Notes: generated by a model not told the origin, from the letters alone. DNA of 64,000 bases from Pirellulaceae bacterium (GCA_041745295.1 JBGTJE010000103.1:25689-89688); one strand, 5' to 3'; counted from the first letter of the stretch, positions 9,776-60,406 are shown. Numbers and translations are program-made.

Positions 9776-9784
9776 GAGACTTCA

Positions 9785-17086: not shown

Positions 17087-17157
17087 CCTTGTCGCCTTTA
17101 GACCCTGTCCGGGTCACATCCGCGCTTCATGCGTCGGCATGCATCGACGGATAGTCG

Positions 17158-17670: not shown

Positions 17671-17691
17671 ATTTCACCCCCGAATGTTAGA

Positions 17692-18894
17692 TTAATTTCC
17701 CGCCGAAAAAAGGGCCAAGAAGAACGCGATGTAAATGTAGCCCACGACACCGCCGACCAATAACGTGATCGCTGGTGTCGCGATAGCCTGGAGACGTTGC
17801 ACCGATGCTTGAAACTGGTCCTCATGAAATTCGGCCGCTTCGCGCATGACACGTGCCATTTCGCCCGACTGTTGACCGACGGAGACCATCTTGTTGAACA
17901 TTGGTGTAAATCCTCGAGGGGACGTCACGGCTTCCGATAGACTGGTGCCGCGAATGATCTTCTCGCGAGCCGCGGCCACGATTTGGGAAAGCGAGCTATT
18001 TCGCAGAAGCGTTTGCACTGTTCCCAGGGCTTCCGTCAGCGTGAGTCCGCTCTCGAGCATCATATGCAACCCACGTGCGAACGTCGCGGTTTCTTGATTT
18101 CTGATCAGCGGTCCGAGCACGGGGATCCTGAGCAATCCGCGGTCGATCCACAGCCGACCTCGCTCCGAGCCATAGGCAAACGCCATCAAGGCAAACGCGG
18201 CGACTCCACAGCCGGCGATGGCCACGAAGTTGTCACGCAGCCATTGCGTCCCGCGAATCAATTGCTGGGTCATCGCGGGCATCTCGCGTCCCAAGCTTTC
18301 CAAATAAACTTGAAGCCGAGGCATCAAATAGACGACCAAGTACACGGTCACGAACAGCGCGAGGAGCAGAACGAGCGCCGGGTAAATCGTCGCCGACCAA
18401 AACTGTTGCCTCGCTTTGCGGTGTTTTCGCATCGTGTTGGCCGCGCGAAGTACGACCGGCTCGAGGTCCCCCGTTTGCTCTCCGACTTCGATCAGGCGAA
18501 CGGCAAAATCTGGGAGTCGAGCCTGCCGGCGGAGGGCCTGGCTCAAGCCCATGCCGTTTTGAATGCTCTGGCCGACCTCGCGCCACATCCGGGCCAGCGT
18601 GCGGACGTCGGCTTGCTCGACGATCGTGTCAATTGCCGCCAGCAGCGTCATTCCACTACGAATCATGATCGCCAGTTGCTGCAACGAGATTTCGATCTGA
18701 AGGTCGCTCGGACCGAGCGTCCACGTCCAGCGATTCGATTGGGCTTGGGCCAAGACAATTGCCTGTTCGATTCGCAACACAATCCAACCTCGATCGCGCA
18801 ATTGCGATGTGGCGACATGTCGCGACGCGGCTTGGATGACACCGCTGCGTGCGATTCCTTGGTCGTCGCGAGCTTTGAATGCGAATTCGGGCAT
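17692..18894 (-). CDS. Inner-membrane platform protein GspF/PilC family
   Basis: 400 aa. Duplicated GspF domains with three TM segments. Lies next to GspE. Confidence 0.8.
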   Translation of the reverse strand: MPEFAFKARDDQGIARSGVIQAASRHVATSQLRDRGWIVLRIEQAIVLAQAQSNRWTWTLGPSDLQIEISLQQLAIMIRSGMTLLAAIDTIVEQADVRTLARMWREVGQSIQNGMGLSQALRRQARLPDFAVRLIEVGEQTGDLEPVVLRAANTMRKHRKARQQFWSATIYPALVLLLALFVTVYLVVYLMPRLQVYLESLGREMPAMTQQLIRGTQWLRDNFVAIAGCGVAAFALMAFAYGSERGRLWIDRGLLRIPVLGPLIRNQETATFARGLHMMLESGLTLTEALGTVQTLLRNSSLSQIVAAAREKIIRGTSLSEAVTSPRGFTPMFNKMVSVGQQSGEMARVMREAAEFHEDQFQASVQRLQAIATPAITLLVGGVVGYIYIAFFLALFSAGN

Positions 18895-18908
18895 CAGCGA
18901 AAGGGCCT

Positions 18909-20414: not shown

Positions 20415-21616
20415 CGTGCTTGTCGACTTACGGCAATCGGTCGGACACTGCCTTGATAGGTTCGCGATCGCTCGACCAACAGTTTGGAGTTTCGGGCCAA
20501 GGACCGCGCAGTCACTTCACTAATTCGTTGTTGGCCGAGCAAATCGGCCAAGCACTGGTCCAAGGTATACATGCCTTCGGCACCGCTCGTCTCAATAATC
20601 GAGCGTATTTGTTTGAGGTTGGCTTGGGCGATCAAGTTGGATACGGCGGGCGTTACGTGCAACACTTCGCTGGCGAGGACTCGTTGTGTGCGTTGTTCGG
20701 TTCCGGGTCGGCGGCCGGCAGGGCTTTCGCCGATCAACAAGTGCTGGGCAATAATCGACCGCAACGTCGCCGAAATCTGGTGTCTAACCATTTCTTGTTC
20801 GTCGCCCGGAAAGACGCTCGACAATCGCTCGATCGCGCCGACGCAATCGCCGGCGTGCACGGTCGCCAAAACCAAATGGCCCGTTTCGGCCGCGGTGATG
20901 GCAGTACGAATCGTTGGGAGGTCGCGAATTTCACCCACCAAGATGACGTCCGGATCTTGCCGCACGGCGTCCACGAGGGCGCGGTGAAAATCAGGCGTGT
21001 CGAGTCCGACTTGGCGTTGGGTCACCATCGAGCGGCGCGACGCATGGACATACTCGATCGGATCCTCAATCGTGACGATGCGACAGGCCTGGGTCTGATT
21101 GATGTAATCGATCAAGGCGGCCTGCGTGGTACTTTTTCCTGAGCCCGTCGGTCCCGCCACGAGGATTAAACCGTGCTTCAAGTTGCAGATCTTGTACAAG
21201 TCTTCGTTCAGTCCCAATTCTGAAAGTTTTCGAAAATGATTTTCCAACCGCCGTAGGGCCAGCGACCAGGCATCGGACGATTTGAACAAATTGAATCGAA
21301 ACCGGGTCGCAGCATCGAGCGAAAATGCGCCGTCAACCGATCCCCTCTCGTCCAATTGCCGGTGCAATTCCGCGCTCAGGAACGAATTCGCCATCGACTT
21401 GACTTGCTCGTTGGAGAGGCGTTCGGCCTTTGCCGGTTGCCAAGGGACCAAGTCTCCTTGGATTCGCACATGCGGAACTTGCCCCGCCGAGAGATGCACA
21501 TCGCTGGCGCCGTGTTCGACCGCCGACTTTAACAGCGATTTGAGTGACTCATCGAGCGTGATGTCGTTCATTGACGATTGTCCTTTGCGGCGATTGGATG
21601 GGGGGTTAGACCCCAA
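20411..21616 (-). CDS. pilT: PilT/PilU-family retraction ATPase
   Basis: Walker A AGPTGSGKST, GEIRD, ATGHLVLATVHAGD. 401 aa with a short N-terminal extension; the start is possibly the ATG giving MNDITLD. Its stop overlaps the GspE start in an ATGA. Confidence 0.8.
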   Translation of the reverse strand: MGSNPPSNRRKGQSSMNDITLDESLKSLLKSAVEHGASDVHLSAGQVPHVRIQGDLVPWQPAKAERLSNEQVKSMANSFLSAELHRQLDERGSVDGAFSLDAATRFRFNLFKSSDAWSLALRRLENHFRKLSELGLNEDLYKICNLKHGLILVAGPTGSGKSTTQAALIDYINQTQACRIVTIEDPIEYVHASRRSMVTQRQVGLDTPDFHRALVDAVRQDPDVILVGEIRDLPTIRTAITAAETGHLVLATVHAGDCVGAIERLSSVFPGDEQEMVRHQISATLRSIIAQHLLIGESPAGRRPGTEQRTQRVLASEVLHVTPAVSNLIAQANLKQIRSIIETSGAEGMYTLDQCLADLLGQQRISEVTARSLARNSKLLVERSRTYQGSVRPIAVSRQAR

Positions 21617-43549: not shown

Positions 43550-45556
43550 TTGATGAGTGAACTTCCGCCGAACAATTCAAACGACCCTGAAGCAAAGCCG
43601 GGAAAGCGACCCAGACCCGGACTGGGTTGGGGTTTAATGTTCCTATTGACGATGGCAGTTGCGTTCATGCTGTACCTGAACTGGGTTCAGATGCCATCGA
43701 AAATCAGCTTGTCGTATCTGGAGAATTTGATCGAAGGCAAGGATTTTCAGGGGAATGTAATCCTCGGTGTCGACGGCAAACCGGTCGGACCCAATATCGA
43801 TCGTCTTCAAATTGTCGGCGAGCAGGCGTACGGCGTTTTCAAAGTCATTCCGCCGGCGGAGCCGACGTTTGACACGGAGGGGACGATGGTCCCCAGCACA
43901 CGCCCACTCAAGAAGCAGTTTACCGTCCAGATTCCCAGCCCCAACTCGCAGGCCGGCGCGAATTTGTACGATCGGCTGCGGGCCAAAAATATCTCGGTCG
44001 AAAAGGAACAACAGTCTGCTTATGACCTGACTTCGATCATTATTTTGGCAATGATTTTCATCCTGCCGATCGTGATCATGTTTTACTTGTTGCGGCGGAT
44101 GCAGAATCAGGTCATGGGGGGTGGAAACTTCCTTTCAAATTTTTCGCGTAGTCCGGCCAAGCGGTTCGAACCCTCGGATAAACGCGTAACGTTTAGCGAT
44201 GTTGCCGGGTTGGACAATGTCAAAGGAGATTTGTTTGAGATCGTGGACTATTTGCGCGATCCCAAAAGGTTTCAGCGGCTCGGGGGCCAGATCCCCAAAG
44301 GCGTGTTGCTATTTGGACCACCCGGTACAGGCAAGACATTGATGGCTCGGGCGGTCGCCGGCGAAGCTGGCGTTCCGTTCTTCAGCGTGAATGGCTCGGA
44401 GTTCATCCAAATGTTTGTGGGCGTCGGAGCAAGTCGCGTCCGTGATTTGTTCGCCAGCGCCAAAAAGCAAGCTCCTGCCATCGTATTCATCGATGAGATT
44501 GACGCCGTCGGGCGCCAGCGCGGCGCGGGCTTGGGCGGCGGTCACGACGAGCGCGAGCAGACGTTGAACCAGATTCTCGGCGAAATGGATGGCTTTCAAA
44601 AAAACGAATCGGTCATCGTCTTGGCGGCGACGAATCGCCCCGACGTGCTCGACCCTGCGTTGCTTCGGCCCGGGCGTTTTGATCGCCACGTCATGGTATC
44701 ACGCCCGACGCAGTCTGGGCGTTTGGCCATTTTCAAAGTCCACGTGCGCGACGTCCCGCTTGCGCCAGACGTCGACTTAGAGGTCATGGCCAGCGCGACC
44801 TCGGGATTGACCGGCGCGGACATCGAGAACTTGGTCAACGAAGCCGCGCTGTGGGCAGCCCGGCACGACAAGAACCAAGTCGAAATGAAGGATTTCTATT
44901 ACGCCCACGACAAAGTGCTGATGGGCGCGCGGCGCGAGGAGATTCTCAGCGAAAAGGAGAAACGACGGACTGCATTCCATGAATCGGGACACACCATGGC
45001 GGCTTGGTATTTGCCCGGCGCACTGCCGGTCCACAAGGTCACTGTGATCCCGCGCGGGCACACTCTGGGAGTGACGCAGATGACGCCGTTGGAAGATCGG
45101 CTCAATATTTCGGAAAACGAGTTGCGCGATCAGCTCATCGTGGCGCTGGCCGGCCGCGCGGCGGAACAGCTGGTTTACGACGAGCTTACGGTCGGCGCTG
45201 AAAACGACTTGGAACAAGCCACGAATATCGCCCGCCGGATGGTGACCCATTGGGGAATGAGCGGTCGCCTCGGTCCGGTTAGCTTCAAGATGTCGGATGA
45301 GGATCCGTTTCTGGGGCGCGAGATTCACAAGAATCGCCAATTCAGCGAACACACGATGGAGCTGATCGACGACGAAGTCACGAACATCTTGCAGAACGCC
45401 GCCAAGGCGGCTTATCAATTGCTGGCCGATCGCCGAGAAGCGCTCGATCGGTTGGCCGAGCAATTGGTCAAGTCGGAAGAACTCGATACCAAAGTACTGG
45501 AGACCATCCTCGGTCCGTCGGTGCACAAGCGCGACGCCAATGGACAATACAAGTAG
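43550..45556 (+). CDS. ftsH: ATP-dependent zinc metalloprotease FtsH
   Basis: Two TM helices, AAA Walker [12 protein letters not shown] motif, and zinc site HESGHTM. 668 aa. Confidence 0.95.
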
Positions 45557-45568
45557 AAAGATGGGCGG

Positions 45569-48500
45569 TTAATTTATTTGCTCGACACTAGTTCGAACGA
45601 GCACGTCTTCCAGCAGGCTGACAAAATACCAATCCTGGTCGCTGCCGCCAAACAGCGCGTCGCGGGCGCCGTCGTCCTGCACGCTGACGCCGTGTTGCAA
45701 AAAGATTGGCGTGTCTTCGAGGACCGGTCCGTTGCCGTCGCGGATGTTCGTCACGCGTTCCGAATAGCCGCGGCTGGACGTCCATTCAGCCAGGATGGCC
45801 GTCAGGGCAGACGCGCTTTGGTCATGCGAAGTCGTTCCAGCGATGAGCAGATCATCGTTCCAATGGCCTAACAGCGTATCGCCGCCCCTCCCACCGATCA
45901 GGATGTCGCGGCCGTGACTCCCGATAAGCGCATCGTCGCCGAGTCCCCCGAGCAGAATGTCGTTCCCCTGATTGCCGTACATCTCGTCGTTGCCCGTGCC
46001 GCCATCGAGGCGGTCGTTCCCTTTGCCGCCGCTGAGTACGTCATTGCCCGCACCACCAAATAGGTTGGCGGCTTGGACGATGCTTGAATGGACGATAATT
46101 TCGTCGTTGCCGGCCAGTCCGAACGCTGCGATGCGATCGAATTGGACAAACTGAGCCTCCCCGATCACGATGTTGTTTCGCTTTACGAAGACAATGCCGT
46201 CGTCGCTTGGTTTAACGAATCGGATCCGGTCGTCGTCTTTCGTTCCAACCACAACCCAAACGTTTTGCCCGGGATTTTCCGGATCGGGAAGAAGACGCGA
46301 GCCGCCTACGGGGACTCGTTCAAGAGAGACGCGATAGTCTTCGATTTCGCCGTCAGGGGCCGATCCTGTCGGTCCAAGTCCGCCGTCGGTGCTAAGGCGA
46401 AAGCGAGCGTAGCTGGTTCCGGTGCGCGCGCTGGCTGGGACGGTAAACGTGACCGTATTCGCACCGGCCTGTACGGCCAGTCCGGTCGCGATTTGCTCCG
46501 CGGCTTCAAAGATCCCATTCCGATTGAAATCGATCCAGGCGTCTAGCCTACCGACTTGCGATGCGGTTACTATTGCCGCTGCATTGAGCCGGGCAATGAG
46601 GGCGCTCGGCAGCGCAACGCCGTCTTCGTCGCCTGGCGTACCGGCGAGATCATCGCCGTCGGCCAAAAGACTGGGCTGGCCGTCAGTCTCGCCGTCACGC
46701 TGGCTTCCCAGTCGCAGGTCCGAGCCCGATAGGTGGACCGCCCCGTCACTTGTCAGCAGTGTCCCGTAGCTATCCGGCGCGTCGCCAAAATCCCCTTCTG
46801 TGGCGACCAAGACCACGGTCGTCGTGGCGTCTGCCTCGGTAGGCAGGTCCTCGCTGTGTCCCACGTTGTCCGTTGCCGCGCTAATGAAGGCATAAGCGTG
46901 GCCAGCAGCGCCGGTAAAGATCGCGGAAGACTCGGTTGTGTCGAGTAAAAATGGCGAGAAGGCTCCGCCGTCGACCGAAACGAAAATGTCGAAGAACGAA
47001 ATGCCCGAGCCATTTGGATCATCGTTGCCGGTCCAATTCACCGCGAAAGTTTCGCTGCCGGTCGTGGCCGGAAGTGGATCGACATTGCTCGTCGGCGTGC
47101 CGGCGTCGATGGTGTTGAAGATCGCCGGCGTGTCGATCGCGGCGTTCACGTCGAAGACGATGCTGGCCTGAGCGTCGATTCGTGTTCCGGTTGGCAGGCC
47201 CGGTTTTGGCCGCACGATGTACGTGACGAAGCCTTCCCCTTCCGGCGGGATCTGGTTGGGGGGCAGGAAGCCGATGTCGCCCTCCGCGTCCGTCGGTATT
47301 TCCAGCGTCGCCGGGTCGAGCGACGTGAAAGTCCAGGTGATGACGCCGGTCTCGAAGTTGAGGTCGCCGCTAACGTCGAGAAAGAGGTTTCGATCGGGTC
47401 GAAGATCATATCGCCGCAAGAAGGAGCTGCGCTTGGCCGGCAGATTAACGAGACTCGAGCCGATGCCGAAGCTGAACAACTCAAAGGTCGCCAGATCGAG
47501 ATCGGGATCGAGCGTCTGCGTGACAACGACCGTCTGGGCCGGCGCCGTCGCCGCCACGTCGTTTTCGAAGCGGATCGTATAGAAGAGGGACGAATCCGCC
47601 GGTAGGAAACCTTCCGGGCCGAAGCCCGCCGGTCCGATGATGTCGTTGGGGTCGTGGGCAAAGACCTGGAGGATTTCAGCTTCGTCGACTTCCTCGCCGG
47701 GAGGCGGCGGGAAGTCGTGATCGGGGTTGAAGCAGTCGAAAAAGTCACAGAGATTCCATAGAGCATAAAGGGGCGGGAATTGTGAACCAACGTTAATACC
47801 AACTGGTGAATCCGGGTCCAACGCTACGATCAGCGCCAGAGGGTTAATGGACAGCAACGGGTTTGCAGTGACGAGCGTGTCCGCCGCGTCGAACGCAGCC
47901 GCCTCCGCATCAATCAACTCAGCCTCGGCCAGCGCAGCTCTAGCTTCGGCCAGCTCAGCGGCCTCAAGTTTAGCCAAAGCCTCCCTTCCTGAGGGTGTCA
48001 GTTTATGGCCAAGCTCCAAAGCCTTTCGGGCTACTTGGCCGGCAATGGCTTCCCTAGCATGTTGGATCCCGCCCTTCGCAACGCCGCCAATTACGCGTAT
48101 GAAAACTGGCACTAGTGTCGGCGACAAGCCTGACGGGTCAATGTAGTTCACAGGATCGTTCGTGACGTAGCCGTAAAGATTAAGGCCGCCGGCGATGCCG
48201 ATCGGATCCTCATTGATGTAGCGCCCATCGTCCGAGGAGTAGTACCGTGCCCGCATGAAATCCAGCCCGTTGCCATCTCGCTGGACGCCGAACTGGCCGA
48301 CGAACTCGAACGGGTTGGCGATCGTTTCGCTGATCGTGAGCGCCTCGCCGAAGGGCAGATAGCTGTATTGGTTCGCAATGACGCCACTGGCGTCCGTCAT
48401 CGCCACGGTCGAGCCAACGCCGTCGAAATCGTAGAACGCCGCCGCTCCGCCGGAATCATGCCGGCTGACCAGACCGAAGCCGCCGTGGACATAACGGGCG

Positions 48501-51500
48501 ATCAGATTGCCGCCGGTGTCGTATTCGGCGACGACATTCGTCAGGCCCAGTGGGTCGATGAGGTACTCGGTGCGAACGCCTCCATCGACTTTGGCGACGC
48601 GATTGCCCAGCGCGTCGTATTCGTAACCGACCCTGAGCACTCCATCGACCCAGCTCAGCAGGCGGCTCTCATCGTCGTAGGTATAGGTCGTGCCGCCTCC
48701 GGCTTCATCCGTGATCAGGTTGCCGTCCTTATCGTAGGTTCGGTCGAACGAACCGATCCGCTCGTACTGGTTCAGCTTGTTGGTCGTGTAGTTGGTCGGA
48801 GCGCCATTGTCGATCACCGCCGTGCGGTTGCCAACGGCGTCGTACTGATACTGAATAATCCGGCTGTCGGGGAGTACGACCAACGTCAGTTGCCCGATGG
48901 CGTCGTAGCCGAACGTCGTCAAGCCTTCCAACGTCGTGACGCTCGTCCGCCGGCCCAAGTCGTCATAGGTGTAATCGAACCGCGAACTGACGGTGCCATC
49001 GGGAAGATGATTCACCAGGCTCGTAAGCTGGCCTGCGTCATCGAACCCATACGTGGTGAACGTGAGGTTGCCGTTGTCTTCGCGGCTGAGCCGCCCGACC
49101 GAGTCATAGGTGTAGAGAACCAGCCGGATGTCCGAGCCGTCCGTCAACTCACCAATTCGGCCGGCTGCGTCGTATCGGTACTGGACGATGAAACCGGATT
49201 GGTCTTCGAGCCGGATTCTCCGCCCGCCGGCGTCATATGTGTATTGGAGGAAGCGGGCATCGGGGTACGTCACTTTGGTCAAACGATCCGCGGCGTCGTA
49301 GTCGAACGTCGTCGTCCCGGCTTCATCGGTCGCCGTCCGCAGGTTGCCCCGGTCGTCGTAGGTGAACACCTCAAACGTGCCGTCGGCGTGGTCCTTGCGG
49401 AGCAGGAGGCCGCGGTCGTCGTAGGCGTAGTCGATCACCTGGATGCGGCGGTTGATGGATTGCGTGATGTTGCCGTCGGCGTCTGGCGTGACCTGCTCCA
49501 CGGAGCCGTCCACGTGGATGATGCCCGTCAGATTGCCCTGGGCGTCATAGGTGTAGCGGAGGGGGATGCTGCCCTCGTCGCGAATCGTGGTCGGCAGGTT
49601 GAACGTGGTGTCGTAAGTGAAGCTGAGCGAACGGCCGTCCGGCTTCACGACGAACGTGAGATTGCCGTTGCCATCGAAATCGAAGAGTGAGACCGTATCG
49701 AGCGGTTGCGTCACGCGGTCGAGCCGATGCAGAGCGTCGTAGTCGAACCGCGACGAGCGGTCGAGCGCATCGCGCGTTTCCAGGAGTTGGCCGAATTCAT
49801 TGAAGAAGAGCGACGTGGTCTTGTTGAAGGCGTCGGTGATGAAGACTTCGCCGACGCTGCCATAAGCCAACGTCACGGCTTCGGCGTTTCCGTCACGGGA
49901 GGAGCCGACGAGCCGGCCCTGGGCGTCGTATTCATAGAAAACGTGCGTCTCGTCGGGCGTACCGTCGGCTCGCGTCACCGAGGTCAGCGCGTGCTCCGCC
50001 GACGAACCGGCAGTCGTTTCGTAGGTATACGCGATCGTGCTGTCGGGGCCGGTGACGCTCATCAAGTGCTCGCCGGCGGCATCGTATACAAACGTCGTGA
50101 GCCGCCCAACCTGATCGGTGAGTTGGGCAAGCCGACCCGCGGCGTTGTAGCCAAAGACGAACTGGTCGCCGTTGGAGTGCGACAAGCTCACGAGCCTCCC
50201 GTCGTCGTAGTTCAGCGTGACCTGGTGCCCGTTGCGATCGGTTACGTCGAGCAGACGCCCCGTCACTTCGTCAAAGCGGCTGATCGTTCCATTGGTCTCA
50301 CGCAGCGAAAAAACACCGCTTGCCAGTGTGAGTTGAGCGTGATCGAGGAGCGAACTCCTGAAGAGGCCAGGGAAGAAGACCACCTCGTCGAACCGCCGCG
50401 TGCCGCCCGGCGTGCGGATCAGGACGTCGTTCGTGACCCCGTTGTCGTTCGGTACGCGCGACAGGCTGATGTCCCACGGGTCGGACCAGCCGCGGCCGAG
50501 GATGCCCATGTCAAAGCGCCGCGAGATCGTCGGGGCGAACGTCCGACCCCAGACCAGCGGCACCCCACTGGCGGGCGCGGCGGCGTCGATGGCCGAGTGC
50601 GGGCTGCCGCCCGGTAGTGCGTTATCCGCTTGCGCGAAGTGGACGCTCAGCAGCCGGTCAATGTCGGTCGTGTAAATCTCGTAGCGACTGAGATAAGTGG
50701 CGGCGTCCCGGAGCGCTTGCAGGTACGAGCCAACGGTCGTGCCGACTCGCGTGAGGAGGTTTCTGAAAACCACGTCCCACGCGGCGGGCGAGACGGTGGG
50801 CGGGCGCAACTCGTCCTTGTGCGAGGCCAGAGCGAAAGGCTTATCGTCCGGTCCGGCCTGGATCAGCCGGAACAGGAGTGGGTTACGATCCAGCGCGTCG
50901 AGATCCTCTATGAAGCGAACCTCCTGGAGTTCGTGGGTGCCCGGGGGAAGCACGCCCGCCGGGCCGGATGTGCTGGTCGCAAAAAACTGGATCACGTTTT
51001 TGGCAGGCGACTCTAAGTCTTCCGGTAGGGGCCGCGGCCCCTGGGGGGGGAGCGAAGTACCGCTGCCCGTAGACCCGCCTCCGCCACCGCCATCTCCGCT
51101 TCCGACTCTTATTTGTCTTGGGACTGGGGGGACGATGACATTGGCGTTTGGCGACTCGATCAGCAGCAGGGGTGCCGGAACGTCCGTCTCTCCGACGTTC
51201 GAATACTCGATGAACAGGCTATCCTCGCGGCCTCCGAGAGTCGTCGCCGCCGCAAACAGTCGAACTGCAAACACGCCGGGGTTCCCGGTCGTCACCGTGA
51301 ACGCGCTCGCCAACTCCGTCGAGCTGGCACCATCCACGGCGCGCACGCTGTAAGAGCCGGTCGCTAATCCCGCGAGATTGAACGTCACGAAAAAGGTCGT
51401 CTCACTCTGCTGCACGACGTTCGCCGCCGGCAGGCTACTCGCCTGACCCACCAGACTGAAGACGGTCTCGGTCGAGAAGCCGGTCCCGATAATCGTGGTC

Positions 51501-53821
51501 GTGACCTGTCCGACATTGCTGCCACGGTTGGGCGTAACTTGATTAATCTCCATCCCCACCGAATCGGCCGTGAGCGAGAAATGCCCGAGCGGCACGCCCG
51601 CCGTCGAGGTCCCGCGCACTCGGATGAAGGACGGAACCGGCGCGCCGGCCAGCGAGAACTCAGGGTTAGGATTGACGAACGCGACCACGCGCTCGAAGAA
51701 GTTGTTCGCATCCGGCAGGTCGCCCATGCGCACGAGAATCTCGCCCATTTGGGGATCCGTGAAATGGGCCGTCAGCCGGGCATTGGTCCCCGGCGGGACA
51801 TTCAGCCGGAACGTGAACTCCTGCCCTAGTAACAAATCTCGCTCGATCGTCGGGCCGTCCAATTCCAGGATCGAAGCGGCCCCGCTGACCGTTCGCGAAA
51901 ACTCGGAAGTGTCGGTCGGCACAGACGGCGTGGCTGAATTGGAGTCGTGGTCGAAAAGCAGCGTGGCGGTTGAAGTGACCTGTTGGTCCGGCGTGAGCAG
52001 CGCCGGCATTTCGGCGGAGAAGCTCACGTTGCCTGCCGAGTCGGTATGGACGATGGTCTCGCCGAGAAATGTCTGCCCCTCGCCAAAACCCGAAGGATCG
52101 GCCGCGTCGCTGGCGAAGAACTGGATCAAGAAATCGGTTTGCGCCATGCTGTTGAGCGAGCCGAAGATGGTCGAATCCACCGCGCTGCTCAGGACCTCGA
52201 CCAGAACCGGGAAATTTTGCCCGTTGTTGCCAATGAAGATGAAGTTGCCGGAGTGGTCGGCGTCGCCGGGGTCGTTGGCCGTCACACCGGCGGCGTTTTC
52301 GCTGCCTCCAGGCAGGTTAATTCCTAGGCGACCGTTGGCAAAGATGGAGTTTCCCAGGATGGGATACGAGCCAAGGCCACCAATCAGGATCCCGTCGTTG
52401 CCGTTGGAAAATATCGTGTTTCCCAGGATGGGCATCGGGTTACCGACCGAAACCCCAATCCCGGTGTTGAAAGCGATGACGTTCCCCGCACCGGGCGCCG
52501 TTCCGCCAACTTGGGAAGAAAGGGGAGAGCCCGATATACCGTGGCCAACGAAAGGGGAAGGACTGCCATTACCAAGCGGGCTAATGCCATCGGCTTGCGT
52601 GCCAATGAAGTTGCCCAACACCAAGATCCCCGACGAGGATCCCTGCCCCACGAACGTCTGGGCGCTGATTCCATTCCCCGGGTTGCCGGAAATGACATTG
52701 CGCGCGTGGACGATCCCGTCGAGCATCCCGTCGTCGTCATCGTCTCCTCCAATCATGATGTTTCCAGATACGAAGAAGGAAATGCCCCCCGCTCCGTTGC
52801 CGATCGCCACCGTGCCCGTCACGTCCGTGCCGATGTAATTGCCTTGGATGAAGAGGCCACTCTGGCGGGCGACATTTACGCCAAAAAAGCCATTGCCCGA
52901 GATGATGTTGCGCGCCCCGGCAACCGTCCCACCGATGACAGTTCCGCTGCTATCGATGTCTCCAATTCCCAAGCTCACGCCAGTATCCCCATTCCCCAGG
53001 TCTTGGGTGCCAGTGATGTCGGTGCCGATGAAGTTGCCTTGCACCTGGTTGAATTTGCCGTGGTTACTCCCCTCGACCCCGATTCGGTTGTTGCCCGAGA
53101 TGACATTGCGGGCGGCCGGTGTCGTCCCGCCGATCCGGCTGCTAGTCTCATTGAAATTGATGACCACACCGGAGCCGTTGTTGCCCAGATCAACCGTGCC
53201 GCTGGCATCGGTGCCGATGAGGTTGCCTTCGACCACGTTGCTGGTTGAAACCACCAAGTTAATTCCGTGTCCTGTGAAACGGTTGACGACCAGTCCTCGG
53301 ATCGTGCTGCCCCCCCCGCCGCTGATTGTCAGCCCATCCACGCTGCCGGCGCTGGTTCCATCAAGCTCGATTCGCAGCACCGTGTTGAGGCCCAGCAGGG
53401 ACTCGACCGAATTGGTGTTTATGCTGGTCCCTGGCTGCGTGTAGCCGTCGATGATCACCGAGCCGGTTATGGTCGGCAGGGCGGAGGTCGGGGCGATCGT
53501 TTGAACGCCGGAACCGGGGATATTGAAATTGATGGCGTCTGTCCCAACAGTCTCGTAGGGCTCCAAAGTCACCACGTCCGCATTGACGTTCGCGTTATTG
53601 TTCGCGGAAGTAATGGCCTCGCGAAGAGTCACCAGACCATCGACAGCGATTGTGTCACCGATGCCGGTAACGATGATCGTCGCAAGAAGTACGCGGTCTT
53701 CCAGCTGCTCGATTCCCGGTTGGTAATGCCGTGGTGCGGGGCGCCGCAATTGCGCGTCCGCGCGTTTTCGGAGCCGAAGAGATCTCGTGGAGAACCGCTT
53801 ACGTAATCTTGACCAATTCAT
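45569..53821 (-). CDS. Giant secreted multi-domain protein (2750 aa). It has an N-terminal LEDRVLLA motif, a CSLREA-like segment, parallel beta-helix repeats, Ig/IPT-like domains, RHS/YD repeats with an RHS core (DPxGL), a GEVED-like domain and C-terminal RTX repeats.
   Basis: [13 protein letters not shown] (CSLREA-like). Many NxIxGN/GTxxxGN beta-helix repeats. YD repeats (YDxxGRL, YTYDxxG). RHS core [74 protein letters not shown]. Its ATG overlaps the upstream kinase stop in an ATGA. Confidence 0.9.
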
Positions 53822-56763
53822 TGCTTACCCTTTTCTGATTCTTGACTCTTTAGCTCGTCGAACTTCTTCCGCCACTCGGCGGCCTTTTCTTCGTTGCCCG
53901 TCGCTTCGTAGAGTTGCGCCAATCTCTCGAGAGACTCTCGTAACCGCTGATCTCCATCCCGCTGAGGCGTCTTGGCTTCGACTTGTTTCAGCCCCTCGTA
54001 GCCGGCCAGCAACAGCGGTTCGGCCTCGGCGAATTTTTTCTGGCCGAGCAGACTGCCGCCGAGCACGGACTTGGTGCAAAAGGTGGCCCAGGCGTCTGGC
54101 TCCGTCTTCTCACGGATCGCCAAACACTCGCGCAGGAGCGGCTCGGCGTCGGCGGGCTTGTTTTGCGCCAGCAGGCTTGCTCCGATTGGGTGTAGTTCTG
54201 CAGCGTATTGCGGCGAGTCAGCACCGGCTTTCTCTTTCCAAAACGTGGCCAGTTCGCGCCAAATAAGTTCGGCTTTTTCCGACTGGTGCAATCTGTCGTA
54301 GCAGTCTGCCAAGTTTCGCATGTATGTCTGGGTGAAGGAGTGCTCAAGTCCAAGCTTGGCACGTGCTCCAGCGACTGCGTCTCGGAAAAGCGGTTCGGCC
54401 TCGGCCACCTGGCCCATTTCCCGGTAGTCAGTTGCCAGGTTGTTCATGCTGTTGAGCGTATCGGGGTGGTCGGGGCCGACCGTCGCTTTCCGCCTCTCCA
54501 ACGTCTCTACGTCGAGTGCCATTGCTTTGTCGAACTTGCCGGCGGCCTTATATGTTGCGGCGAGGTTGCTCATGCTGCCGAGCGTGTGGGGATGGTCGGG
54601 GCCAATCGCCACCCGTTGTTTTTCGAGCGCCTTTTCCAAGAGTGGCAAAGCTTGGTCGAACTTGCCGGCGGCTTGGTACGCGGTGGCCATATTGTTCATG
54701 CCGATAAGAGTGTTGGGATGGTCGGGGCCGACCGTTGCCAACAGTTTCTCCAGAGACTGTTCGCGAAGCGGCAGGGCTTTGTCAAGCTTGCCGGTGGCAT
54801 GGTACGCAGTCGCCACGTCGCTCATGCTGGTGAGCGTGTCAAGATGATCGGGGCCCAGCGTCGCTTTCCGCTTCTCCAGAGTCTGTTCCCAGAGTTGGCG
54901 GGCCTGATCGAGCTTGCCGGCGGCATAGTATGTCCCGGCTAGATCGTTCATGCTGGTGAGTGTGTCGGCATGGTCAATGCCGAGTGCCACCTTTCGCTTC
55001 TCTAGAGTCTGTTCGCCGAGCAGCAGGGCCTCGTCAAGCCGCCCGGCATCTACGTACGCCCAAGCCAGGTTGTTCATGCTGGTGAGCGTATCGGGGTGAT
55101 CGGGGCCAAGCTGCTCCAAACGGAGTTGTCGGCTTCGCTCGAGCTGCCGAGTGGCCAGCGCCGGTTCGCCCAGGTACAGGTACGATTCTCCCAATGAGTT
55201 GCGGATCGAGGCCTCAACGAGCGGCCTGTCAAGAAAGGCGGGAGCGATTTGTGGCTCGGCTGCGTCGACCGCCGCGCGAATGCTGGCGTCGATGCCCAAT
55301 CCACCGTCGAGATCCTCGGGCCGTGCCGCTGCCAGCACCTTCTCCTGGAAAAATTCAAGGACCGCGCGGGTGTCGGATTCTGACTCCTTCGCTCTGCGGG
55401 CCTCGTCGCGCGCCTTCGCCTCGCTGATCTTGGCCGCATCCTCGGCCGCGACGGCACGATTGCAGTCGTCGTTGGCCTTGCCTTCGGCAACGGTCGCGCG
55501 AACTGCCTGCCAGGCGCTGACCACGGCGCCGCTGACCAACAATGCCATAAAGGCCGCGGCCAACAGGACGCCGCTCTTATGTTTGTGGAAATATTTCCGG
55601 AATTTATAACCCGCCGACGGCGGACAAGCTTGGACCGGTTCGTCGTTCAAGTAGCGTTGCACGTCGGCCGCAAAGCCGTTGGCTGTCTCGTAACGATCGT
55701 TGCGGTCCTTTTCCAGCGCCTTCATTACAATCCAGTCCAGCTCGCCGCGGACCAACCTTGTTAGTTTGGCCGGCTCCGTTTGCCGCTGCGCCGAGATCGA
55801 CGCCAGGGCCTCACCCGAGTCCGAGAGCCGCGTGCTCGGCTTGGGAGGTTCCTCCTCCTTGATCATGCGGAGGATCTCGCCATAAGCCGCCTCCTTCATC
55901 CGCGAATGCGAGAGCGGCGTGCTGCCTGTCAACAGTTCATACAACAGGACGCCCAACGAATAAATATCGCTGCGAGTATCGACGCCCAGGGCGCTCATCT
56001 CCGCCTGCTCCGGGCTCATGTATTCAAAGGTGCCGACCATAGTTCCGTACTGCGTGAACAAAGTACGCTCGGTTAGCGTTTGCTCGGTCGCCTTGGCCAC
56101 GCCGAAGTCAATTACCTTGGCGACGGGCTTGCCGTCGTAAAGCGTGATCATCACGTTGGACGGCTTGATGTCGCGATGGATGATCCCTTTCTGGTGGGCG
56201 TGTTGAATTGCCTGGCAAACCGGCACGAACAGTTCCAACCGCTGGCGCGGCGTCAAGCGGTTGCCGTCGCAGTATTTAGTAATTGGCAGACCATGTACCA
56301 GTTCCATAACGAAGTACGGCCGGCCCGATTCCGTGGCTCCGGCGTCGAGCACGCGAGCAATGTTAACGTGATCCATCATCGCCAAGGCCTGTCGCTCAGC
56401 TTCAAAGCGGGCGATCACCTGGCGGCTGTCCATGCCTGGCTTGATGACCTTAAGGGCTACCTTGCGCTGCACAGGATGCGTTTGCTCGGCCATGAAGACA
56501 GTTCCCATGCCTCCTTCGCCGATTTGCTGCAAGAGCCTGTACGGACCGATGACTGTACCGGGGCGTTCTAGGGGGGACGAGTCGAGCGTTTCCACCCGGG
56601 ACAACACGTCCATGAAACTGCCGAGATGACCATGTTCAGACAGAAGTGACTCGACCCGTTGGCGCAATGAGGCGTCCCCCGCGCAGGCCTCATCGAGGAA
56701 GGCGGCTCGCTCGGCTGGACTCCCCTTGGTCAAGGCAGCAGTAAAGATTTCTCGCTCGGTCAT
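53818..56763 (-). CDS. Ser/Thr protein kinase with one TM helix and C-terminal TPR repeats (981 aa)
   Basis: [34 protein letters not shown] helix [17 protein letters not shown]. At least eight TPR units ([28 protein letters not shown], and so on). Confidence 0.9.
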
Positions 56764-56851
56764 CGCGCAACCCTTTCGGAGTTGGGTCTATACACAGTGC
56801 GTAATTCGGCGGCCAACTCGGCAAGAAAAATGGTCGGCCGGTGGAAAAGGC

Positions 56852-57409
56852 TCATTCAGCAGCTATTTTTTGATGGAGCCAACTACGGGCATAGGCCCAG
56901 ATATCGTGCGCCGTTCGCACCGAGATTCCTAAGGCCTCGGCGATCTCGCTCATATTAAGGCCCACAAAGAATCGCAGTTTGACCAAATTGGCAGCCGCGG
57001 GGTCGATCTCGGCCAGTCGATCGAGAAGTTCGTCGACGGCCAGCATTTCTTCCGCCGGGCGATCCGTGCTGATCGCCGATTCGTGCAGTTCCTCGCGTTG
57101 CGCGTCGCCTCCACGTTTGGCCGCGCTTTTTCGACGGGCTTGTTCCACGAGAATCCGCCGCATCGCCTCGCCGGCGGCAGCAAAAAAATGCCCTCGGCTG
57201 TTCCAATGTTGAGCCTTCTCCACGTCCACGAGCCGGATATAGGCATCGTGTACCAGCGCCGTCGCCTGCAACGTCTGACCTGGCTTTTCCTGAGCCAGTT
57301 TCGCGGCCGCCAGCTTCCGCAGTTCGTCATAGACCAGCGGCAGCAGCTGCTCCGCCGCCGACGGATCGCCCGACTCGATCTGCGACAGGATGCGGGTGAC
57401 ATCGGACAT
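56852..57409 (-). CDS. ECF-type RNA polymerase sigma factor (sigma-70 family), kinase-associated type
   Basis: 185 aa. Region 2 (LVHDAYIRLVD) and region 4 HTH (LNMSEIAEALGISVRTAHDIWAYARSWL). The N-terminal MSDVTRILSQIESGDPSAAEQLLPLVYDELRKLA pattern is typical of ECF sigmas encoded next to Ser/Thr kinases. Confidence 0.8.
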   Translation of the reverse strand: MSDVTRILSQIESGDPSAAEQLLPLVYDELRKLAAAKLAQEKPGQTLQATALVHDAYIRLVDVEKAQHWNSRGHFFAAAGEAMRRILVEQARRKSAAKRGGDAQREELHESAISTDRPAEEMLAVDELLDRLAEIDPAAANLVKLRFFVGLNMSEIAEALGISVRTAHDIWAYARSWLHQKIAAE

Positions 57410-57555
57410 GGCACGAGCGTAGTCTGTAGCGCCGCCAATAGCAAGAAGCGAGCCGGCAAGGTCGCCGCCTGACGGCGCGGGGAAATAAACGCAAGCTGAT
57501 TTATCGCGATGACGGGGACCGGCTCCGATTTCTAGAGACCTATGAGGAGACGATC

Positions 57556-57828
57556 GTGCGGTTGGGCTGCGAATTCTCGCCTATCGAGTCCAACGCGGCA
57601 TTGGCAAAAACGTACAAACTTATCGACAAGCTAATGAGCAAGCCGGAGTTGAGTCGCGCCGAAAGCCATATGCTAAAACTACTATCGATGTTGGTTGAAC
57701 AATATGAAAGCCGTGAGCACCCAACGCCGGAAGTTTCGGCCGCCGACTTGCTTGCCCATCTCCTCGAGTCGCGGAATTCGTCCGCCGTGGCGGACGATCC
57801 AAATTTTGGCGAATTCGACTACCTCTGA
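57556..57828 (+). CDS. Small hypothetical protein resembling the N-terminal domain of HigA-like (COG5499) antitoxins. It lacks the HTH and may be a remnant.
   Basis: GTG start preceded by GAGGAG. PIESNAALAKTYKLIDKLMSKPELSRAESHMLKLLSMLVEQYESREHP follows the I..E..Y..AL..ID.LM.......E...LELL..LVE.YE..H.P pattern of HigA N-terminal domains. The ORF ends before any HTH. Confidence 0.3.
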   Translation: MRLGCEFSPIESNAALAKTYKLIDKLMSKPELSRAESHMLKLLSMLVEQYESREHPTPEVSAADLLAHLLESRNSSAVADDPNFGEFDYL

Positions 57829-57864
57829 CGCTTCGGTTCGTGGGACGCGGTGCATCCAAACGTG

Positions 57865-58677
57865 TTACAGATCGTCGGCACGGACGCCGCTCGGGCTGTA
57901 GTTTCGGCCGGTCGTGGGGAGCCTTGAGAAATTGGGTCTCGGCCAGCGCGTCGATTCGAGATCGATTTCCCCCAAATACTTTTCCTTCACTCCGGGGTGC
58001 CGAATGATGTCTTCGGCGGTCCCGCTGCACAGGATCCTGCCGTCGCTGACCACGTACGTTCGATGGGTGATTTGCAGGATCTCGCGGGCCGCGTGGTCGG
58101 TTATCAAGATGGAAATCCCTTCGCGGCTGAGCGTGCGGATAATCGTCTGAATGTTCTGCACGGTGACCGGATCGATGCCCGCAAACGGTTCATCGAGCAT
58201 GATGATTTCCGGACGCGAGACGAGACAGCGTGCGAGTTCGAGTCGCCGCCGTTCGCCTCCCGAGAGTCGGCCGGCCCGCGTCCGGCGGACGTGCGAGATT
58301 TTGAACTGTTCGAGCAACTCGTCGCATCGAGTCCGCCGCACCTGCCGCGGAAAGTTAAGCAGTTCCATCATGGCGATCAAGTTCTGTTCGGTCGTGAGTT
58401 TGCCAAACACGCTCGACTGTTGCGGCAAATAACCCATGCCGCCGTCGCGTCCGCGCACATACATCGGCCAGTCCGTGACGTCCTGATCGCGCAACAAGAC
58501 CTGGCCTTGGTCCGGGGCGAGCATTCCGCAGATCATACGGAACGTCGTCGTTTTTCCCGCGCCGTTTGGTCCCAACAATCCGACGATTTCGCCGGCGTCA
58601 ATTTCCAGCGTCACGCCGTCCACAACTTTGCGGCGACCGAAGCTCTTCTCCAGTCCGTTGGCCTTTAAGATTGTCAT
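57865..58677 (-). CDS. lptB: LPS export ABC transporter ATP-binding protein LptB
   Basis: MTILKANGLEKSFGRRKVVDGVTLEIDAGEIVGLLGPNGAGKTTTF, signature LSGGERRR, Walker B IMLDEPFAGIDP. 270 aa. Confidence 0.85.
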   Translation of the reverse strand: MTILKANGLEKSFGRRKVVDGVTLEIDAGEIVGLLGPNGAGKTTTFRMICGMLAPDQGQVLLRDQDVTDWPMYVRGRDGGMGYLPQQSSVFGKLTTEQNLIAMMELLNFPRQVRRTRCDELLEQFKISHVRRTRAGRLSGGERRRLELARCLVSRPEIIMLDEPFAGIDPVTVQNIQTIIRTLSREGISILITDHAAREILQITHRTYVVSDGRILCSGTAEDIIRHPGVKEKYLGEIDLESTRWPRPNFSRLPTTGRNYSPSGVRADDL

Positions 58678-58705
58678 GGAGTACTCCTCCCTGAGTGGAT
58701 CTCGC

Positions 58706-60406
58706 TTAGCGGATAAATTTCATCCGCGAAAAATCAGGAAAGCCGAAAAACGGACTGTTCCAACTGTGCGGCCAATAGAGGAACAATCCTCGCCCGAGTA
58801 GCAAATCGCGCGTTACGTACGGGGGATCGCCCCACAAGCGAGCGTCTTGGCTCGCCGGGCTATTGTCGCCCATGGGAAAGTATTGGCCCTCGGAAAGCGG
58901 ATGAAGATCGCGATCCGAGCGGCGCTGGCTCGCGAATAAAATTGCCGTTTCGTTCGACGCCCATTGGGTCGGTTCGTCTAACAGATCGTTCAAAGTATCG
59001 TCGTCGAAATTGATTCGATACTCGAAATCTCCACTCCGTTGCGGCGCCGTCACCGATGTGTAATAAACGTCGCGCCAGACCTTGAGCCGTGAAACGCGCA
59101 GCTTGCCGGATTGGCAACCGATTGCCAGGGGCAAGGCATCGCCTGGATCATCGACAGAATATTGCGGTACGACAGTCTCTGGTCGATCAAAATCCTGGTA
59201 AGGAGTTTGGCCAAACACGACGGGCTTGTCGTCAACCCAAAGAAATAAGCGATTGTCGCCGTTCATGAACAAGATGCGATTCGTTCCGCGCCCGCGAATC
59301 GAACAGCTTCCAACTGACTGTTGCATTTTGAGGCCTTGGGCGTCGTTGAATTCGACCTGCGGATTGGAACTGCTGAGGGAAACGTTGCCCGTCGCGATAT
59401 CGATGTCGCAATTGAAATGCGTGCCGCCTTCCGTCGTTTCCAGTAACAATCGACCTGTATCCGATTCGATTTGGACCCACGCTTCGACGCCGAGGTCGCC
59501 GACCCAATGGCGACCGCTCACTTCAGTGCCTTCGCCGCCAGCGCGAGAGGCGACGTACTCGTTATAGGAATAATGGTCCCGAACTAGTCCGCCGCCGAGA
59601 ATTCCGCTCGACAAGAACTCTGACATCCGCTCGGGCAACTGCCCCTCGGCCAGCGAGTCCCAATCCTCGATCCGCGGTTGGAGGTGACGGTATTTGAGCC
59701 AATGCGATTCTGGGGATTGGGTCGCATCGATTTCGAAGACGAGGCTGGGTTCGACTTGGCCGGACCACGTGGGAGCAGCGGATTGCGGTTCAGCGGTCGT
59801 CCAGCGGAGGGGCCATTTTGCGGCCGTCAATTTTTTTCCGACATGCGACGTATCGTCGACCAATTGCATCATGGATCGCATTTTGGAGGGCGATTTCCGC
59901 GCAATACGTCGATGGTCGAAGGATTCGCTGCGCGAATCAAAGGTAAAAATGTCTCCCTGTTCAATCAGCAGCGATTCATTGGGAAGTCCGACCAAGCGCT
60001 TGATGTAGTTTTGTTTGGCATTCTTTGGATTCTTAAAGACGATCACATCCCAGCGGTGCGGCTCGGCGAAGTCATAAATGAACTTATTGACCAGAATTCG
60101 ATCGCCGTCAAATGAACTGTGATCGGAGAGTCTCTCCGGCGATAAAACGGTTCGGTAGCGGCAGATGGGGCAAAAGGCCGTTCGCACATCCGATCGCCTC
60201 GAACTGCAATTCGTTTGGTAGCGGAAACCGCATTGATCGCAGGCGAGGTCGAAGTGTTCACCGCGCAGCGTGGTGGCCATCGATCCCGTCGGAATGATGT
60301 ACGCCTCGGCCTCAAACGCCTTAAACATCAGGGCCAGCATGATCGCTACGAGGATCGATTCGATCGTTTCGCGCACGCCAGGGTCTTTGAAAAAACGGAT
60401 CACCAA
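58706..60406 (-). CDS. lepB: Signal peptidase I, an unusually long form with a Cys4 zinc-ribbon insertion and a large inserted domain
   Basis: N-terminal TM helix. Box B IPTGSMATTL, GDRILVNKF, box D RLVGLPNESL, box E GDNSPASQDARLWG. A CDQCG...CPIC zinc ribbon between boxes B and C. About 350 aa inserted between boxes D and E. 566 aa. Confidence 0.8.
   Translation of the reverse strand: MVIRFFKDPGVRETIESILVAIMLALMFKAFEAEAYIIPTGSMATTLRGEHFDLACDQCGFRYQTNCSSRRSDVRTAFCPICRYRTVLSPERLSDHSSFDGDRILVNKFIYDFAEPHRWDVIVFKNPKNAKQNYIKRLVGLPNESLLIEQGDIFTFDSRSESFDHRRIARKSPSKMRSMMQLVDDTSHVGKKLTAAKWPLRWTTAEPQSAAPTWSGQVEPSLVFEIDATQSPESHWLKYRHLQPRIEDWDSLAEGQLPERMSEFLSSGILGGGLVRDHYSYNEYVASRAGGEGTEVSGRHWVGDLGVEAWVQIESDTGRLLLETTEGGTHFNCDIDIATGNVSLSSSNPQVEFNDAQGLKMQQSVGSCSIRGRGTNRILFMNGDNRLFLWVDDKPVVFGQTPYQDFDRPETVVPQYSVDDPGDALPLAIGCQSGKLRVSRLKVWRDVYYTSVTAPQRSGDFEYRINFDDDTLNDLLDEPTQWASNETAILFASQRRSDRDLHPLSEGQYFPMGDNSPASQDARLWGDPPYVTRDLLLGRGLFLYWPHSWNSPFFGFPDFSRMKFIR

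Follow-up and report, generated by a model that had tools for sequence, protein, structure and literature searches.

The stretch analysed here (hereafter the window), 64,000 nucleotides from a Pirellulaceae bacterium (JBGTJE010000103.1:25689-89688), carries on its minus strand neighbouring genes for a sigma factor of the extracytoplasmic function (ECF) group, a TPR-repeat Ser/Thr kinase and a giant exoprotein with RHS and RTX repeats (hereafter the giant), and the question raised by this triad is whether the sigma factor and the kinase form a signalling module for the giant gene beside them. The original prediction had described one translationally coupled unit with a dedicated module. Its three co-directional open reading frames (ORFs) were all confirmed by ORF calls and translations, as were the identities given for the ECF sigma factor (PF07638, TIGR02999), the TPR Ser/Thr kinase (Pkinase, TPR_10/TPR_12) and the RHS/RTX giant (RHS_repeat, Rhs_assc_core, HemolysinCabind). 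We consider it fairly probable that the triad is a sigma-factor module of the ECF43 kind, switched by phosphorylation and joined to its output gene; the evidence comprises a threonine motif in the sigma factor, an adjacent membrane kinase, and a synteny with giant genes that is conserved and was re-formed among relatives.

Sigma factor, kinase and their place before giant genes

The sigma factor matches PF07638 (Sigma70_ECF; E=8.2e-66, residues 1-182 of 185) and TIGR02999 (E=5.5e-63; 212 bits against a cut-off of 126), with TIGR02937 also above its cut-off, and consists of the sigma2 and sigma4 regions only. Ordinary ECF sigma factors carry in sigma2.2 an acidic DAED/DxxD patch, which contacts the beta' clamp. 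In the window sigma factor QATA stands at this place (context GQTLQATALVHDAY), and the pattern Q-x-T-A/G was found in all six class-A sigma factors compared (classes in Table 1). Sigma factors of the ECF43 type, with the sigma2.2 consensus QTTA, are inactive until a neighbouring Hanks-type kinase phosphorylates the conserved threonine, and the phospho-threonine restores the negative charge, as described for EcfP/PknT and EcfK/PknS (PMC8999054, PMC8103513, PMC13147305). T50 is the predicted phospho-acceptor in the window protein. Pfam scans of the neighbours of the sigma and kinase genes detected no anti-sigma domain. By its motif, its family and the adjacent kinase without an anti-sigma gene, the sigma factor is assigned to the ECF43-like, kinase-associated type, with membership in TIGR02999/PF07638 serving as a proxy for the ECF Hub groups.

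The kinase (Pkinase, E=7.7e-44, residues 75-339) has a complete set of catalytic motifs (GEGGMG82, VALK102, HRDIKPSN196, DFG219, SPE250), and its C-terminal part matches TPR_10 (E=5.6e-87) and TPR_12 (E=9.5e-78) in eight stretches each. One transmembrane segment was also found in each of 11 related kinases, at residues ~395-440; from hydropathy and the positive-inside rule, the window kinase would be of the receptor type with an extracytoplasmic TPR domain. Its N-terminal extension follows the pattern IFxxALxxxxxERxAFLDxACxGDxxLRxxVExLL, and across 11 kinases the type of this extension goes with the class of the adjacent sigma factor; the extension is a candidate sigma-docking region. An origin of the C-terminal tail of the kinase by read-through of a former leader was considered and rejected, as the tails of related kinases are similar in length. 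The window encodes a second Ser/Thr kinase (159-4127, plus strand; 1322 residues) with a class-B-like N-terminus, a WD40 propeller and a CxxC...CxxC zinc-ribbon-like insert; in contrast to the triad it stands alone: the 158 nt before it contain no sigma gene, and no co-directional gene lies 3' of it.

The synteny across relatives, a check that had been proposed with the original prediction, was followed in nine giant loci with readable upstream context, the window included. Co-directional sigma and kinase genes lie directly upstream of the giant gene in six of these, a kinase gene only in a seventh, and neither in the remaining two (Table 1). Outside the triad no gene is common between the loci, and all flanks differ. 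Planctomycetes encode on average ~40 ECF sigma factors per genome (PMC7826278), so that the chance of a given gene lying directly 3' of an ECF-kinase pair is ~1% or less. A further giant homologue in a Pirellula metagenome-assembled genome (MAG; L006:89-7120; 37% identity, C-terminal part) has a co-directional kinase gene 283 nt 3' of it with no sigma gene between; the contig breaks off on the upstream side, and the locus was left out of the count. Directly 3' of the giant P0003 lies a match to a group II intron D1-D4 RNA (RF02005, 113 bits; L002:15945-16157, plus strand), followed by an ORF resembling a reverse-transcriptase fragment.

Two classes of sigma-kinase module were distinguished (Table 1), and both occur within the giant clade of 64-69% identity, where class A is found in the window and L002 and class B in L014. 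The sensor domain differs as well, WD40 in L013 and TPR in the other giant-linked modules. A single ancestral block handed down intact does not account for this distribution, which indicates that the sigma-kinase module has been swapped and repeatedly recruited in front of one giant family and was not merely co-inherited. At L008, a sigma gene (9306-9998) and a kinase gene (10001-12931) are both of class B, and the catalytic domain of this kinase is 86% identical to that of the class-A window kinase; a class-B N-terminus on a catalytic domain so near to that of the window suggests a modular sigma-docking region.

The closest relatives of the window kinase (60-68% overall identity, up to 86% in the catalytic domain) have no RHS giant 3' of them. 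Of the seven kinases or sigma-kinase pairs sampled independently of the giant, five are directly followed by a gene with a planctomycete export signal: at L009 (LEPLEDRRLLA), at L010 (VEQLTDRIVPTA, then LETLEDRTLPA), at L011 (CEALEQRTVPA, then VEALEDRCVPA), at a second kinase of L002 (a 1339-residue beta-lactamase-domain protein starting ...VEAFEDRVVPA), and on plasmid PALBO1 of a cultured isolate, Paludisphaera borealis PX4, where the gene after an ECF-type sigma factor and a kinase (63% identical over the first 396 residues) encodes an SBBP-repeat protein that begins with RRRALRPRLESLEGRVVLS. At two of the five the kinase alone is visible, as the locus ends before the sigma gene of the second L002 kinase and the contig end truncates that of L010. 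At L008 an RTX protein with VEAFEDRMVLS is encoded just upstream of the class-B pair, and the downstream side is broken by an insertion-sequence element. The ECF43-like pairs on Eleftheria and Persicobacter plasmids have no exoprotein gene 3' of them, and the plasmid database contained no class-B sigma match and a single planctomycete class-A module. The N-terminal export motif is the sole common feature of the partner proteins. As judged from these neighbourhoods, the planctomycete link extends from the RHS giant to other export-signal genes; the dedicated or co-expressed module of the original prediction is partly supported, being borne out as regards synteny and qualified in that relatives of the kinase precede unrelated export-signal genes and not only RHS giants.

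Gene junctions, leader cassettes and the giant exoprotein

The ATGA shared by the kinase stop (TGA) and the giant start (ATG) was confirmed in the junction sequence (minus strand, ...GGGTAAGCAATGAATTGG...), with a Shine-Dalgarno-like AAAGGG run whose end is 7 nt 5' of the giant ATG. The 88-bp gap between the sigma and kinase genes was likewise confirmed, and class-A relatives have spacers of 55-88 nt at the equivalent place. One translationally coupled unit of three genes is hence too wide a term: the overlap is confined to the kinase-giant pair, and it is peculiar to the window lineage, with gaps of 123-624 nt between kinase and giant genes in the five relatives with both sigma and kinase genes. 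The 88-nt spacer contains no significant RNA structure (z = -0.29) and no terminator-like sites beyond chance; from 45000 to 58800, terminator-like and promoter-like sites were not above shuffles (16 vs 13.0 +/- 3.5 and 1 vs 3.8, respectively).

The GC content at third codon positions (GC3) of the triad (0.67-0.74) is inside the range of the adjoining genes, and an origin of the triad by horizontal transfer or as an island was rejected on these values. Within the giant gene, GC3 rises to 0.83 in nucleotides 3001-4500 (window 49322-50821, just ahead of and at the start of the RHS shell) and is 0.68-0.76 elsewhere; the neighbouring genes have 0.61-0.75. The gene 3' of the giant gene encodes FtsH and is convergent, with no co-directional gene after the giant. 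The sigma gene is neighboured by a gene for an ABC ATPase and by a small plus-strand ORF without a Pfam match (57556-57828; frame open upstream to ~57480), which is divergent from the sigma gene and leaves ~70-150 nt for a sigma promoter. Its product (...ALAKTYKLIDKLMSKPELSRAESHMLKLLSMLVEQYESREHP...) resembles, by eye, the N-terminal half of a HigA-type antitoxin without the helix-turn-helix, and the ORF may be a gene remnant.

In all fetched loci, the exact 11-mer GTCTGCGCGCC occurs in four copies, each on the coding strand and just 5' of an export-signal gene; two further genes of this kind have near-exact copies before them (L013:894; L002:21488, minus strand). Six export-signal genes from several unrelated metagenomes, including the L013 giant gene, are preceded by a conserved leader of ~130 nt, whose core CGGTCTGCGCGCC is fixed at ~65-90 nt ahead of the start codon. 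By alignment, this cassette comprises a hairpin in which loci differ by a compensatory G:C to T:A change, then CGCCCCGGCGCnCGGTCTGCGCGCC, a further conserved block ATCGCAGGCCG and AAGGAG as the ribosome-binding site; no Rfam family matches it. We infer a terminator followed by a regulated promoter/leader; a sigma-dependent promoter/leader and a structured 5' untranslated region are both conceivable. This suggests that, in the cassette-bearing genomes, each exoprotein gene is transcribed on its own under the control of a sigma factor. A Gemmataceae locus (L005:6117-7342) has a different candidate, a pair of putative promoters specific to its lineage, in that a sequence of ~60 nt (GAAGAAAACC...CTGACGTGTTTC...GCCG.GTCGCA.A.GAGG) occurs twice, before a 288-residue ORF and before the giant gene. 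Autoregulation via a degenerate copy of the element in L013 was rejected, as this copy precedes a Calx-beta pseudogene remnant and not the sigma gene. GTCTGCTCGGC at 54043-54053, inside the window kinase gene, was rejected as evidence for an internal promoter: a search of the window for the element with two mismatches gave 29 matches vs 45 expected, and a profile search gave none.

From its N-terminus, the giant comprises a predicted export signal, beta-helix-like repeats, PPC/IPT/CARDB-like modules, an RHS shell, DUF7619, GEVED and RTX repeats. The giant is the sole ORF in the window with the export motif as a regular expression, and the motif is present in 12 of 12 giant orthologues; the PF07595 hidden Markov model gave no significant match on the giant and a match under the cut-off (E=0.0012) on one related-locus protein. 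The motif RRLxxExLExRxLLA (PF07595) has been described as the planctomycete N-terminal cell-surface export signal (Studholme 2004, via PMC8567305), and in Tuwongella it is found in 52 proteins per genome, including eight of the ten longest (PMC8567305). The first ~20% of the giant gave many matches named 'right-handed parallel beta-helix' or 'CSLREA domain'. The RHS shell is represented by RHS_repeat (PF05593, E=4e-62, 11 stretches) and TIGR01643, and the core by Rhs_assc_core (E=1.8e-20) and TIGR03696 (residues 1821-1899), ending in a PxxxxDPxGL-type motif (DPSGL, residues 1895-1899); a weak match to the DUF6531 plug covers residues 1076-1128. Among solved structures, the closest are those of the Rhs proteins 8h8a and 7q97 and of the teneurin-like 9pt5. 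The post-core stretch of ~850 residues consists of the DUF7619/GEVED/RTX modules, of which residues 2024/2052-2337 are 54-62% identical to P0006 and P0011. Giant orthologues from metagenomes (44-69% identity) run colinear with the giant from its first residue as far as ~2337, where the alignments stop and the tail varies. Because the post-core is conserved to ~2337 and no immunity-like gene follows, the giant resembles a large protein of the cell surface or the extracellular space and not a polymorphic toxin.

No HlyD- or TolC-type genes for type I secretion adjoin the triad, and the sole nearby ABC component is a soluble ATPase of 270 residues (57865-58677) without a transmembrane or C39 domain. 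Type II secretion/type IV pilus-like genes are located ~25-30 kb from the giant gene (14987-21616, minus strand), comprising a secretin (14987-17086) and two T2SSE ATPases (18909-20414 and 20411-21616). Counterparts of the giant, of ~2700-3050 residues and annotated as Calx-beta or CARDB proteins, are encoded on plasmid pC052_B of Nostoc sp. C052 (L015, 10638-19808) and on a plasmid of Gloeothece verrucosa (L016, 11304-19412), with 32-35% identity to residues 955-1262 of the giant, before the RHS shell; no sigma or kinase gene lies upstream of either. As far as these homologues indicate, the architecture of the giant extends beyond the Planctomycetes but the sigma/kinase link does not.

Table 1. 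Features of the triad in the window, and modules, giant loci and leader elements in related loci
Feature	Location	Strand	Basis or description
Sigma gene	56852..57409	-	ORF, 185 aa
Kinase gene	53818..56763	-	ORF, 981 aa
Giant exoprotein gene	45569..53821	-	ORF, 2750 aa
ATGA, kinase stop/giant start overlap	53818..53821	-	junction sequence
Sigma-kinase spacer, 88 nt	56764..56851	-	sequence between sigma stop and kinase start
Sigma2.2 motif Q48-A49-T50-A51	57257..57268	-	GQTLQATALV at residue 44
Kinase N-terminal extension, ~70 aa	56554..56763	-	outside every Pfam model
Kinase transmembrane segment, aa 396-421	55501..55578	-	single; Kyte-Doolittle peak 2.39, basic stretch before
Kinase TPR sensor region, aa ~518-800	54364..55212	-	8 TPR_10/TPR_12 repeats
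Export motif LExLEDRxLLA, giant aa 37-47	53681..53713	-	pattern, after basic N-terminus (RLRKR...)
RHS/YD shell and RHS-associated core, giant aa 1076-1899	48125..50596	-	profile matches, DPSGL end
DUF7619 post-core region, giant aa 2057-2337	46811..47653	-	E=6.8e-19
GEVED domain, giant aa 2426-2498	46328..46546	-	PF20009, E=8e-18
Seven RTX nonapeptides, giant aa 2589-2651	45869..46057	-	PF00353 (HemolysinCabind), E=1.9e-9; GGxGxDxUx units
Class A module	window, L002, L013, L009, L011, L008b		TIGR02999 sigma; Q-x-T-A/G; 55-88-nt spacer; kinase N-terminus IFxxAL...ERxAFL..AC.GD..LR..VE.LL
Class B module	L012, L014, L008a, P0011 contig		TIGR02984-like sigma; D(V/A)SD; sigma overlaps kinase start; kinase N-terminus ..EFxxR...G..P...EY..R.P
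Giant locus, 66% identity	L002/P0003		PF07638 sigma and TPR kinase upstream; kinase-giant gap 148 nt
Giant locus, 63% identity	L012/P0009		213-aa sigma overlapping TPR kinase; gap 624 nt
Giant locus, 44% identity	P0011 contig		213-aa sigma and 1292-aa kinase; gap 184 nt
Giant locus, 45% identity	L013/P0012		PF07638 sigma and WD40 kinase; gap 129 nt
Giant locus, 64% identity	L014/P0006		sigma (cut by contig end) overlapping TPR kinase; gap 123 nt
Giant locus, 39% identity	L005, Gemmataceae MAG		TPR kinase, no sigma; gap ~1.2 kb
Giant locus, 69% identity	L001/P0002		no module; DUF772 transposase gene upstream
Giant locus, 64% identity	L003/P0004		no module upstream
Exact copies of the leader 11-mer	L010:3235, L011:6521, L013:2801, L013:9634	coding	last one precedes giant P0012
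Leader cassettes, ~130 nt	L010:3162-3316, L011:6453-6597, L013:822-961, L013:2731-2885, L013:9563-9708, L002:21413-21560(-)

Proposed mechanism and alternative explanations

In the proposed mechanism, the TPR ectodomain would sense an envelope or extracellular cue and thereby activate the membrane kinase, which would phosphorylate Thr50 in the uncharged QATA patch of the sigma factor; the phospho-sigma factor would bind core RNA polymerase and drive transcription of the operon, including the adjacent giant gene, and the giant would then be exported by its LExLEDRxLLA signal, so that an RHS/adhesin/calcium-binding protein would be displayed on, or released from, the cell surface. The steps up to operon transcription, and with them sigma control of the giant, draw on the ECF43 paradigm, the motifs and the synteny; the export step, and with it the predicted surface localisation, rests on the described motif. 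In the window, the giant gene would have lost the intergenic leader of its relatives and abuts the kinase gene with its first ATG as the start. Because the ATGA would confine a private promoter to the coding sequence of the kinase, where none was detected, the giant is most likely made from the sigma-kinase transcript.

Several observations weigh against this account of the triad. The leader element is absent from the whole window (nhmmer search with the element profile, no match at E<10), and no recognisable sigma-dependent promoter was found 5' of the window sigma gene or in the 3' end of the kinase gene; a promoter internal to the kinase gene is possible. Codon 25 of the giant gene is an in-frame TTG and a possible alternative start, with which the overlap would vanish, and it is unusual for a huge exoprotein to share a transcript with its regulators. 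The sigma-kinase pair is missing from two (L001 and L003) of the three nearest giant orthologues with context, so that the giant can exist without the module. The sample is small, with nine giant loci and seven independent modules, and the giant loci are kin by descent, amounting to about three module types and not to nine independent events.

As a wider and tentative proposal, swappable ECF-sigma/kinase cassettes may act as one-to-one switches for the LExLEDRxLLA genes of planctomycetes, among them many 'giant genes', with the N-terminal ~60-70 residues of the kinase docking the sigma factor in a class-specific manner and the leader cassettes as the wiring. In Planctomycetes, few regulators have expanded as much as the kinase-linked ECF sigma factors; the locus and its relatives provide a concrete pairing of one sigma factor, one kinase and one exoprotein gene. 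If the proposal is true, the targets of dozens of orphan signalling modules per genome would be predictable from sequence alone, targets could be named for the kinase-linked ECF groups of planctomycetes, and the joint expansion of kinases, ECF sigma factors and giant surface proteins would be explained. A neighbourhood analysis by Pfam domains would miss the link, since the partners share just a short N-terminal motif.

A first alternative reverses the direction of the signal: the giant, its export signal or its secretion state would be the input, with the TPR or WD40 ectodomain of the kinase binding the co-encoded exoprotein during its export or display; the module would report on it as in cell-surface signalling or a feedback on secretion stress, in a logic like that of FecA-FecR-FecI, and may then also regulate the giant. 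TPR and WD40 domains are protein-binding scaffolds, each module adjoins one export-signal gene, and the export motif alone is common to all partner proteins. The type of sensor, however, does not follow the partner, as one giant family is found with TPR_10/12, other TPR and WD40 sensors, and the window kinase is 60-68% identical to kinases of unrelated exoproteins; we regard the giant as input as unlikely, and as compatible with, not exclusive of, its being the output of the module.

The adjacency might also be without a regulatory link, the triad being an inherited or mobile block, or the result of abundant sigma-kinase pairs landing beside large genes, with the giant regulated separately. 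Such kinases are indeed very abundant (at least 8000 scored candidates, all with E<=1e-20), additional copies are seen in the second kinase of L002, the second sigma-kinase pair of L008 and the lone kinase of the window, the giants of L001 and L003 are without a module, and transposase genes lie at some junctions. This explanation is nevertheless improbable in view of a triad that is conserved alone amid differing flanks, of the exchange of module class and sensor among close giant orthologues, of an enrichment that is far over the ~1% background and reaches unrelated export-signal genes (PMC8567305, PMC7826278), and of GC3 values like those of the neighbouring genes, with no island signature. 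Finally, a role of the giant as a polymorphic RHS toxin for contact-dependent competition, with the sigma factor and the kinase as a danger-sensing switch as in PknS/EcfK, is very doubtful: an intact RHS core with a DPxGL autoproteolysis motif, best solved matches that are type VI Rhs effectors, the EcfK/PknS precedent in type VI secretion (PMC8999054) and small ORFs 3' of some giant orthologues speak for it, but the post-core region is conserved and not hypervariable, its ~850 residues of modules are too large for encapsulation, the convergent FtsH gene leaves the window without a co-directional 3' gene as an immunity candidate, no PAAR or VgrG match was found in the giant, none of the 18 larger ORFs of the window that were scanned encodes VgrG or another type VI component, and the N-terminus carries the planctomycete export motif.

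Comparison with known systems

The triad as a sigma-factor module with an attached output gene is comparable to EcfP/PknT of Vibrio parahaemolyticus, an ECF43 system, in which the sigma factor also comprises sigma2 and sigma4 only, a Hanks-type transmembrane kinase is encoded adjacently and no anti-sigma gene is present. EcfP/PknT and ECF43 share the TIGR02999/PF07638 family with the window sigma factor, and the sigma2.2 threonine motif reads QATA in the window, STTA in EcfP and QTTA in the ECF43 consensus (PMC8999054, PMC13147305). The differences are the sensor, a TPR solenoid in the window kinase, and the apparent output, which is one adjacent giant gene overlapping the kinase stop in the window and a dispersed polymyxin-resistance regulon under the control of EcfP/PknT (PMC8999054, PMC13147305).

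EcfK/PknS, which sits inside and activates the type VI secretion cluster of Xanthomonas citri (PMC8999054, PMC13147305), resembles the window module in that an ECF43-type sigma factor and a receptor kinase are found beside extracellular or antagonism machinery, and the helical N-terminal extension before the catalytic domain of PknS (81 residues) is comparable to that of ~70 residues in the window kinase (PMC13147305). The EcfK motif QATE keeps one acidic residue, in contrast to QATA, and EcfK has a second phosphosite in the linker; its partner is a type VI cluster, whereas that of the window module is one exoprotein with a planctomycete export signal. In the light of the targets described for EcfK/PknS and EcfP/PknT, the statement of the original prediction that such a coupling is not described for kinase-associated ECF sigma factors went too far (PMC8999054, PMC13147305).

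The groups ECF59, ECF61, ECF62 and ECF217 (TIGR02984, 'Planctomycetaceae-specific subfamily 1') are represented upstream of the giant orthologues of L012, L014 and the P0011 contig. In these TIGR02984-type groups the sigma gene overlaps the kinase start and sigma2.2 carries D(V/A)SD with a serine, and the window sigma factor belongs to the other class; for ECF59/60, a phosphorylation on serine has been suggested (PMC8103513). The accessible literature yielded no account of conserved targets downstream of ECF59, ECF61, ECF62 or ECF217, and the study of export-motif proteins in PMC8567305 makes no mention of export-signal genes linked to sigma/kinase modules.

The giant shares YD repeats, the core and the DPxGL motif of aspartyl autoproteolysis with the Rhs effectors of type VI secretion (8h8a, 7q97), the Tc toxin components TcB/TcC, teneurins and the teneurin-like 9pt5. 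It differs from the RHS toxins in having no PAAR/VgrG or Tc partner and no immunity gene 3' of it, in a very long N-terminal beta-helix/adhesin-like region, and in a conserved post-core in place of the short variable toxin of RHS systems; by these features, its layout recalls teneurin-like surface proteins more than polymorphic toxins. By pattern, though not by a significant match to the Pfam model, it also resembles the planctomycete surface proteins with the PF07595 motif, which have a basic N-terminus followed by the motif and include very long carriers, as in Tuwongella (PMC8567305).

The sigma/kinase mechanism itself is already known, and an ECF43 pair beside the machinery that it controls has a precedent in EcfK/PknS and type VI secretion. 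Three points are apparently new: the conserved pairing, formed afresh several times, of planctomycete ECF-kinase modules with one giant RHS family, its extension to other export-signal genes, and the match between the type of kinase N-terminus and the class of sigma factor. For each of these no report was found in the accessible literature, and a prior mention is possible. Compared with these systems, the advance lies in the wiring and the scope, and not in the principle.

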